A DNA stretch of 64,000 nucleotides from Escherichia phage WPEC4, in the sequence record PV682947.1. One strand, written 5' to 3'. A program made the translations under genes and the position numbers. The notes under the pieces are model-generated. The model searched no databases. It was not told the origin of the DNA and worked only from the letters and a program-made list of their open reading frames with translations. Positions 1,065 through 1,150 of the stretch are shown here, one piece after another; the first letter of the stretch is position 1, and every line of letters begins with the position of its first letter.

Positions 1065-1150
1065 GATGAGTTGGCTGAATGGTTTAAGCGGCGGACTGTT
1101 AATCCGTGTTCGAAAGAACGATATAGGTTCAAATCCTATACTCATCGCCA
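1065..1150 (+). tRNA. Type-II tRNA (long variable arm, 3-bp D-stem, discriminator G) with apparent anticodon GTT (Asn)
   Basis: Acceptor GATGAGT/ACTCATC; anticodon stem GCGGA/TCCGT around loop CTGTTAA; variable-arm hairpin GTTC-GAAA-GAAC; T-arm ATAGG-TTCAAAT-CCTAT; CCA. Confidence 0.6.

Follow-up and report, generated by a model that had tools for sequence, protein, structure and literature searches.

What is a transfer RNA (tRNA) that combines a long variable arm, as in serine tRNAs, with the anticodon of an asparagine tRNA doing in a phage genome, and which amino acid does it carry? This question is raised by a gene with the anticodon GUU at positions 1065-1150 of a 64,000-nucleotide (nt) stretch of Escherichia phage WPEC4 (record PV682947.1), which we call the window. 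A preliminary description of this DNA, made from its letters alone, had regarded the gene as a Ser-like scaffold with an Asn anticodon that, if charged with Ser, would insert it at AAC and AAU codons. The analysis reported here leads us to a different explanation: this would be a genuine, expressed phage tRNA reading AAC and AAU codons, most likely charged with Asn by the asparaginyl-tRNA synthetase (AsnRS) of the host, and its additional arm would possibly have a shielding role. We give this joint reading a probability of around 0.65; the Asn-decoding part, taken separately, is likely.

The window contains at 1065-1150 a genuine GUU tRNA with an extra hairpin arm, and the match to a long-arm tRNA at this place is far beyond chance. 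ARAGORN called exactly 1065-1150 on the + strand, 86 nt long, with the gtt anticodon starting at position 34. The Rfam tRNA covariance model RF00005 matched 1065-1147 in that same register, treating the variable arm as an insertion, and gave 62 bits (E=1.8e-12). Furthermore, the minimum free energy (MFE) structure of 1065-1150 computed with ViennaRNA was the same five-helix fold as that of ARAGORN (Table 1). The acceptor stem starts with the pairs G1:C72, A2:U71, U3:A70 and G4:C69. The hairpin of the variable region, GUUC-GAAA-GAAC (1108-1119), has a stem of 4 base pairs (bp), abuts U43 and is followed by the unpaired GAU at 1120-1122. The structural claims made previously agree with these results: the 3-bp D-stem, the GTTC-GAAA-GAAC arm, the 15-nt variable region and the discriminator G are those of the ARAGORN structure, the good acceptor and T-arm correspond to a 7-bp and a 5-bp stem, and the loop CTGTTAA with the anticodon GTT was read by both ARAGORN and Rfam, neither of which gave another loop register. 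The separate tRNA-Ser(GCT) at 755..840 was also called by both programs. Regarding close relatives, WPEC2 and WPEC6 have exactly this tRNA (100% identity), other Phapecoctavirus genomes have it with 96-100% identity, and the GenBank records of relatives routinely annotate its counterpart as tRNA-Asn.

The gene is one of a large family of tRNA-Asn genes, found mostly in phages, whose variable region has an added short hairpin arm. When the 86-nt tRNA was compared with phage genomes by BLASTN, 715 records matched and 225 of them covered at least 80% of it. Long-arm GUU tRNAs of 83-86 nt are present in phi92 (Justusliebigvirus), and they were also found in T5-like phages (GreteKellenberger and 26175IV of Epseptimavirus, Bas32 and Bas33 of Tequintavirus), in Proteus Novosibvirus and in the T4-like Klebsiella phage Roth01. 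The Kuttervirus Maynard has a homologous tRNA-Asn with a short arm (75 nt), and T5 and Bas31 have a different short-arm tRNA-Asn of 78 nt, whose anticodon stem is altered in the T5 version. The GenBank record of T5 mentions a lack of suppression for its short-arm tRNA-Asn, as would be expected if identity depended on the anticodon. We also scanned public collections with a pattern made of the Asn anticodon-arm and T-arm motifs, GGACTGTTAATCC-N14-30-GGTTCNANNCC. At least 120 IMG/VR contigs matched the pattern with this gap. In bacteria and archaea, where 185,579 species were scanned with one genome for each, it matched only 34 stretches; many of the cellular matches lie inside large tRNA arrays (e.g. 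Micromonospora) and some are mere tRNA fragments. When the gap was widened to 5-30 nt, the long arm was present in 15 of the 120 viral contigs among the matches listed for IMG/VR. Judged from raw counts, which are not a strict ratio, long-arm tRNA-Asn is strongly enriched in viral contigs compared with cellular genomes. For the comparisons that follow we gathered 106 distinct long-arm GUU tRNAs, from viral contigs along with a small number of cellular tRNA arrays.

Some observations on these collections are worth adding (L numbers are locus handles). The cellular arrays with a long-arm tRNA-Asn are on Micromonospora and Verrucosispora chromosomes (L132, L133, L137, L159) and also in L141, L158 and L160; as many as 36 tRNAs lie together there in some 5 kb, and in the last three loci a short-arm tRNA-Asn lies in the same array. 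The long-gap matches of Saprospiraceae were left out of the count, because they are incomplete tRNAs, that is, tRNA-Asn fragments with a palindrome. These fragments, tandem or dispersed in Saprospiraceae/Bacteroidota metagenome-assembled genomes (L140 5498-5800; L130, L139, L143, L150, L156), consist of the anticodon arm and part of the T arm, carry the palindrome CCCGAUAGCUAUCGGG in the variable position and adjoin a normal 75-nt tRNA-Asn. With regard to the short-arm allele of T5-like phages, an open reading frame (ORF) overlaps the 5' end of the 78-nt tRNA-Asn in T5 (L008 11953-12525) and Bas31 (L274 5767-6339). It is annotated as a homing endonuclease in Bas31 and as hypothetical (T5.069) in T5, and the T5-like phages with the long-arm allele (Bas26, Bas32 and Bas33) have no such ORF at that place, which suggests an allele replacement linked to homing.

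Is the arm itself of any use to these phages? It might be a tolerated neutral insertion, or the remnant of a recombination between a tRNA-Ser-like gene and a tRNA-Asn, in an ordinary phage tRNA-Asn that adds Asn decoding. Close relatives do differ in this respect, with a short arm in T5 and Bas31 and a long one in Bas32, Bas33 and Epseptimavirus; the demand for Asn codons is high, and resistance to nucleases is also found in short-arm phage tRNAs. Nevertheless, the hairpin is kept by compensatory changes: the stem is GUUC/GAAC in the window, GAAC/GUUC in phi92 and GAGA/UCUC in L075. In the 106 family members, the best hairpin of the variable region has a mean of 3.5 bp, as against 2.75 (sd 0.07) in shuffled regions, each of the three loop-proximal stem positions shows all six standard pair types, and 58 members have a GNRA loop. 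RNAalifold, applied to 24 diverse members, predicted this additional helix by itself; at its three pairs, 2, 10 and 11 of the sequences had double changes. The arm is thus conserved by covariation across very different phages.

The arm has a geometry of its own as well. In long-arm tRNA-Asn the stem is mostly 3-4 bp long, preceded by 0-1 unpaired nt at its 5' end and followed by 3-4 at its 3' end, whereas the arms of tRNA-Ser from the same loci mostly have a stem of 5-7 bp and one unpaired nt on each side. The window arm follows the first type, with a 4-bp stem, no unpaired nt on the 5' side and three on the 3' side. Since covariation, the preferred GNRA loop and the characteristic unpaired nt recur across divergent phages and, as described below, across several isotypes, and since the family is enriched in viral contigs, selection would seem to act on the arm itself. 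We therefore consider that an arm without function is unlikely.

In IMG/VR loci, phage tRNAs of other isotypes were found to have the same type of arm, namely those for Cys, Gly, Lys, Ile, Met, Trp, Thr, Asp, Glu and Gln. The discriminators of these long-arm class I isotypes mostly follow their own anticodon (Cys U73, Gly U73, Lys A73, Ile A73, Trp G73). They are not uniform, unlike the G73 of E. coli tRNA-Ser, and this argues that the arm is not a Ser device. An instructive case is the phage Bas33 HildyBeyeler (MZ501074; L272 8775-8861), which has a long-arm tRNA-Thr(UGU) of 87 nt with the arm A-(GGA-GUAA-UCC)-CGUU, where the brackets enclose the hairpin, and also carries a long-arm tRNA-Asn of 86 nt. 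Its tRNA-Thr retains exactly the host-like site UAAUC/A of the defence nuclease AriB, the slash marking the cut.

As for the details of these arms, in most long-arm class I isotypes the stem is short, the loop is of the GNRA type and 3-4 nt are left unpaired on the 3' side. Example loci are L013 and L050-L052 for Cys, L020, L052, L093 and L110 for Thr, and L022, L055 and L122 for Trp. The Ile(UAU) tRNAs (L023-L030, L054, L077, L116, L141) have larger loops with a common AGAU core (CAGAUAA, CCAGAUUAG, CUAGAUUGG and similar).

Regarding the amino acid, the bacterial Asn determinants given in a review of tRNA identity (PMC9976931) are G73, G34, U35, U36 and A37, and the five of them are present in the window tRNA. 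Moreover, the 19-nt stretch from C25 to U43, which comprises the whole anticodon arm including G27.U43, is identical to that of E. coli asnT (NC_000913). Within the family, 97 of the 106 members have G73, and three loci (L036, L055, L114) combine D (GUUC...GAAC), anticodon and T arms like those of the host tRNA-Asn with the added arm. The pair U1:A72, typical of bacterial tRNA-Asn, occurs in 67 of the 106, whereas the window tRNA has G1:C72; this pair is a determinant for GatCAB in the indirect pathway and not for AsnRS.

The explanation that competes here is that seryl-tRNA synthetase (SerRS) reads the long arm and G73 regardless of the anticodon, so that Ser would be placed at AAC and AAU codons, either fully or in competition with AsnRS (dual identity). 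The same review lists G73, C72, G2-C71, R4-Y69, C11-G24, a large variable region and G30-C40 as bacterial Ser determinants, and it adds that G2:C71 is absolutely conserved in E. coli tRNA-Ser, that C2:G71 is an antideterminant against SerRS in E. coli tRNA-Leu, and that what E. coli SerRS recognises is the tertiary shape of the tRNA. Six of the seven determinants are present in the window tRNA (G73, C72, R4-Y69, C11-G24, G30-C40 and the large variable region), and the host asnT has only two. When the anticodon and variable arms are left aside, the scaffold is closest to tRNA-Ser: among non-GUU tRNAs the nearest neighbours are the phage's own tRNA-Ser(GCU), with 73% identity, and tRNA-Ser elsewhere, with up to 79%. 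The layout of the D arm (3-bp stem, 10-nt loop), the length of the variable region and the GAAA loop are also those of the own tRNA-Ser(GCU), from whose variable arm the window arm differs only by a register shift of 1 nt. There are precedents of V-arm tRNAs with non-cognate anticodons, namely nev-tRNAs and allo-tRNAs. In addition, since class IIb synthetases come to the tRNA on the side of its variable loop, AsnRS might be hindered by the arm. All of this speaks against charging with Asn alone, and the Ser-like body makes some serylation plausible.

However, other results make charging by SerRS improbable. The determinant G2:C71, kept in 84 of the 88 co-resident phage tRNA-Ser, is replaced by A2:U71 in the window tRNA, and the full Asn set together with the host-identical anticodon arm would make AsnRS a strong competitor. 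The acceptor stems of the family are Asn-like: 46 of the 106 members carry C2:G71, the antideterminant mentioned above, and the Ser signature G1:C72+G2:C71+A3:U70 appears in 3 of the 106, as against 70 of the 88 tRNA-Ser from the same loci. On its 3' side the arm has 3-4 unpaired nt and that of tRNA-Ser has one, a difference that may bear on an enzyme which reads tertiary shape, and on tRNAs for Thr, Cys, Gly and Lys the same arm accompanies non-Ser discriminators. Finally, Asn codons are 6.0% of the 15,520 codons in the long ORFs of the window, so that efficient insertion of Ser would affect, and damage, every phage protein; this is hard to reconcile with a gene conserved in hundreds of phage genomes. 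A tRNA of dual identity, in which SerRS charges a meaningful fraction and infection leads to Asn-to-Ser substitution throughout the proteome, is in our opinion quite improbable. If it were true, the serylated tRNA would be a natural, phage-encoded mistranslation system in an E. coli phage.

Consequently, the Ser-like scaffold with an Asn anticodon of the preliminary description holds for the body of the molecule in this lineage, with its six Ser determinants and its 73-79% identity to tRNA-Ser. The further step to charging with Ser is not supported: G73 is the Asn discriminator too, the Asn set is complete, A2:U71 stands in place of G2:C71 and the geometry of the arm is unlike that of Ser. The Asn-like acceptors of the family, the geometry of the arm and the other isotypes all speak against insertion of Ser at AAC and AAU.

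Coming back to the explanation that we prefer, AsnRS would tolerate the arm and outcompete SerRS, and the tRNA would supply Asn decoding to a phage with the codon usage just described. More speculatively, the arm might be a portable add-on, by which the host-like anticodon arm is kept and the shape beside the 3' strand of the anticodon stem is altered; this changed shape may give protection from host tRNA-cutting defence nucleases that target tRNA-Asn, for instance AriB of the PARIS system; colicin E5 is another tRNase that hits tRNA-Asn. AriB cuts the tRNAs of E. coli for Lys(UUU), for Thr(UGU) and, to a lesser degree, for Asn(GUU) between positions 40 and 41, and the T5 versions of tRNA Lys, Thr and Asn neutralise it (PMC12409363). 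The same authors found that Bas33 needs only the T5 tRNA-Lys to escape PARIS and that T7, which has no tRNAs, needs both Lys and Thr. In the case of the retron Eco7, it is the T5 tRNA-Tyr that escapes (PMC11555353). According to a preprint (bioRxiv 10.64898/2026.07.10.737580), the P2 OLD tRNase depletes Thr(UGU), Gly(UCC), fMet, Val(UAC) and Pro(UGG), and the Thr(UGU) tRNA of Bas33 gives strong rescue from it when expressed. The arm leaves the core of the tRNA right after position 43, beside the strand cut by AriB, and Bas33, although its tRNA-Thr keeps the AriB site, escapes PARIS without added tRNA-Thr; from these facts, a role of the arm as a steric shield against host tRNA nucleases is a plausible hypothesis. 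The window cluster contains tRNAs for Asn, Thr(UGU), Gly(UCC), Pro(UGG) and Tyr(GUA), with the genes for Asn and Thr(UGU), both of them target species of AriB, as near neighbours, and this content agrees with an interpretation of such phage sets as counter-defence.

Several facts count against the shielding part. The AriB site of the window tRNA, UAAUC/C (U36AAUC/C41), is unchanged from that of the host, whose tRNA-Asn is only a minor substrate of AriB, and T5 and Bas31 use a short-arm tRNA-Asn instead. Short-arm phage tRNAs likewise resist tRNA-targeting nucleases; for example, in the OLD preprint (bioRxiv 10.64898/2026.07.10.737580) the short-arm tRNA-Thr of Bas32 resists as well as the long-arm one of Bas33. 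Bas34's own tRNA-Asn, be its arm long or short, is reported to be insufficient for escape from PARIS (PMC12409363). Furthermore, 10 of the 88 viral long-arm tRNA-Asn genes share their locus with a short-arm tRNA-Asn, which hints at separate roles of the two forms.

That the RNA is not mainly an adaptor but a decoy or competitive inhibitor of a host enzyme specific for tRNA-Asn (a nuclease, a modification or a toxin enzyme) would agree with its exact host copy of the anticodon arm, as a decoy would need, and with the competition or inhibition by overexpressed phage tRNAs that the PARIS authors raise as a possibility (PMC12409363), but it is very unlikely, given that the features of a working tRNA are all kept (7/5 acceptor/T helices, D-loop GG, T-loop UUC, encoded CCA, G73) and that Bas32 Thr(UGU) was shown to supplement the tRNA pool and not to inhibit OLD (bioRxiv 10.64898/2026.07.10.737580).

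With respect to its origin, the gene is not a recent one-change mutant of tRNA-Ser(GCU), from GCU to GUU, since identity outside the anticodon and variable arms is 73%; such a recent change is also contradicted by the fixation of GUU across very divergent homologues. A mutated tRNA-Tyr (GUA to GUU) was rejected too, because the discriminator is G and not A and there is a separate tRNA-Tyr at 971-1058. A BLASTN search of E. coli genomes with the 86-nt tRNA gave only a spurious match in yobD, the 19-nt identity with the host tRNA being too short.

How does this tRNA compare with systems already described? With E. coli tRNA-Asn (asnT/U/V/W) it has in common GUU, A37, G73 and the identical segment C25-U43, and some long-arm family members share the D and T arms with it as well. 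However, bacterial tRNA-Asn is class I, with a variable loop of 4-5 nt (5 nt in E. coli), whereas the window tRNA has a region of 15 nt with a hairpin; and where the E. coli tRNA has U1:A72, C2:G71 and U11:A24, the window tRNA has G1:C72, A2:U71 and C11:G24. Bacterial and phage tRNA-Ser, including the one at 755-840, resemble it in the long arm with a GAAA loop, the 3-bp D stem, the large D loop, G73, C72 and C11:G24, and differ from it in the Ser anticodon, G2:C71 and, typically, a stem of 5-7 bp with one unpaired nt on each side. The nev-tRNAs of nematodes (PMC3333845, PMC4033280) and the bacterial allo-tRNAs (PMC5389517, PMC7609411) also join V arms to class I anticodons. Nevertheless, the former have Leu/Ser-type identity elements and are charged with Leu, whereas the window tRNA has the full cognate Asn set; the latter have 8/4 or 9/3 acceptor/T helices, so the window tRNA, with 7/5, falls outside that group.

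The escape tRNAs of phages (T5 against PARIS, T5 Tyr against Eco7, phage Thr(UGU) against OLD) are, like the window tRNA, phage copies of species targeted by nucleases. However, the escape variants known from the literature have their changes relative to the host in the anticodon stem-loop or in the D loop, whereas here the anticodon arm is unchanged and there are an extra arm and a different body. Another close case is the tRNA-Thr(UGU) of Bas33, also a class I isotype with an arm, with one unpaired nt on the 5' and four on the 3' side; its isotype is Thr, its discriminator is A73 and the rescue from OLD that it gives has been published. The extra arm of this tRNA is not mentioned in the available passages of that preprint (bioRxiv 10.64898/2026.07.10.737580), where a text search for 'variable' was empty.

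Textbooks and recent reviews confine long arms to the Ser, Leu, bacterial Tyr and Sec tRNAs, and our full-text literature searches did not find a published account of the class II architecture of phage tRNA-Asn or of long-arm class I isotypes in phages. Thus, the gene itself was already known and annotated as tRNA-Asn, and the arm added to tRNA-Asn is apparently new; it spans well-studied groups of coliphages (phAPEC8/phi92-like and T5-like BASEL phages), T4-like Klebsiella phages and many metagenomic phages. It raises the questions of how AsnRS, threonyl-tRNA synthetase and others tolerate the arm while SerRS ignores it, of whether phages have in the arm a portable means to counter immunity that targets tRNAs (PARIS, OLD), and of whether it could serve as an orthogonality handle in tRNA engineering.

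Table 1. Position of the GUU tRNA, its parts and selected neighbouring features in the window.
Feature	Positions	Strand	Evidence and remarks
Long-arm (class II-type) tRNA, anticodon GUU, 86 nt including encoded CCA	1065..1150	+	ARAGORN, Rfam RF00005, MFE fold
Acceptor stem, 5' strand GAUGAGU	1065..1071	+	7 bp with 1140-1146; ARAGORN
D arm, 3-bp stem GCU/AGC (including C11:G24), 10-nt loop containing GG	1074..1089	+	ARAGORN
Anticodon arm GCGGA-CUGUUAA-UCCGU, 5-bp stem including G27.U43	1091..1107	+	ARAGORN; asnT alignment
Anticodon GUU	1098-1100	+	A37 at 1101; loop CUGUUAA at 1096-1102
Variable region, 15 nt	1108..1122	+	ARAGORN, MFE fold
T arm AUAGG-UUCAAAU-CCUAU, 5-bp stem	1123..1139	+	ARAGORN
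Discriminator G73 (G at 1147), then encoded CCA	1147..1150	+	ARAGORN
Sigma-70-type promoter-like site TTGACA-18-TAGATT	622..651	+	Consensus match only; preceded by motif AACTATTGACAA
tRNA-Ser(GCU) of the phage	755..840	+	ARAGORN, Rfam; internal comparison
tRNA-Thr(UGU)	1242..1316	+	ARAGORN; neighbour of the GUU tRNA

The source of the window, a phAPEC8-like E. coli myophage, belongs to Phapecoctavirus (Stephanstirmvirinae). WPEC2 and WPEC6 match bases 600-2300 with 100% identity, and dozens of other phages do so with 96-99.8%. The complete tRNA cluster occupies 274-2199 on the + strand, between leftward early genes on one side and rightward structural genes on the other, the latter seen in the relative Mt1B1_P17. 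The promoter-like site of Table 1 heads the run of tRNAs at 660-1316, in which the GUU tRNA lies; such sites are not more numerous in the region than expected from shuffled sequence. The motif AACTATTGACAA is repeated at 28-42, 615-630 and 1586-1600 (+), preceding each tRNA block. It includes a perfect TTGACA -35 hexamer and probably serves as the promoter of the phage tRNA operons. The tRNA-Ser(GCU) has G1:C72, G2:C71, G73 and the variable arm A-(GUCG-GAAA-CGGC)-GU. In both this phage and phi92 the genes follow the order Tyr-Asn-Thr.

Several divergent tRNA-like genes accompany the well-formed ones. The one at 660-750 (+) is of class II; its acceptor end is Ser-type (GGAAGGG...CCUUCC-G-CCA), and its loop is CUUGAAA, which gives the anticodon UGA. 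It was not called by ARAGORN, and its sole Rfam match was tRNA-Sec, where its 37 bits did not reach the gathering score of 47; its counterpart in phi92 is annotated as a pseudo tRNA-Ser(TGA). The tRNA-Tyr(GUA) at 971-1058 (+), class II and with A73, was also missed by ARAGORN and obtained 39 bits with the Rfam tRNA model; it is annotated as tRNA-Tyr in WPEC2 and as 'Pseudo-GTA' in RefSeq NC_052662.

Directly after the GUU tRNA, at 1158-1236 (+), lies a tRNA-like RNA homologous to the 'rna3, putative tRNA-like RNA' of T5 (L008 11878-11950, -), which likewise directly follows the tRNA-Asn of T5; the spacer after the tRNA-Asn of phi92 (L001 2586-2664) is homologous too. The blocks UGUAGAGUUAAG...AAACC and AUUGCAGGUAUCGAAUCCUGCC are common to these RNA3-like RNAs, and the order of tRNA-Asn followed by an RNA3-like RNA is kept across two phage families. 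Finally, between the tRNA-Ile and the last tRNA-Met there is a degenerate tRNA-like stretch (2043-2118, +) with a good T arm (GCUGGUUCGAAUCCAGC), acceptor-like ends and an abnormal anticodon arm.

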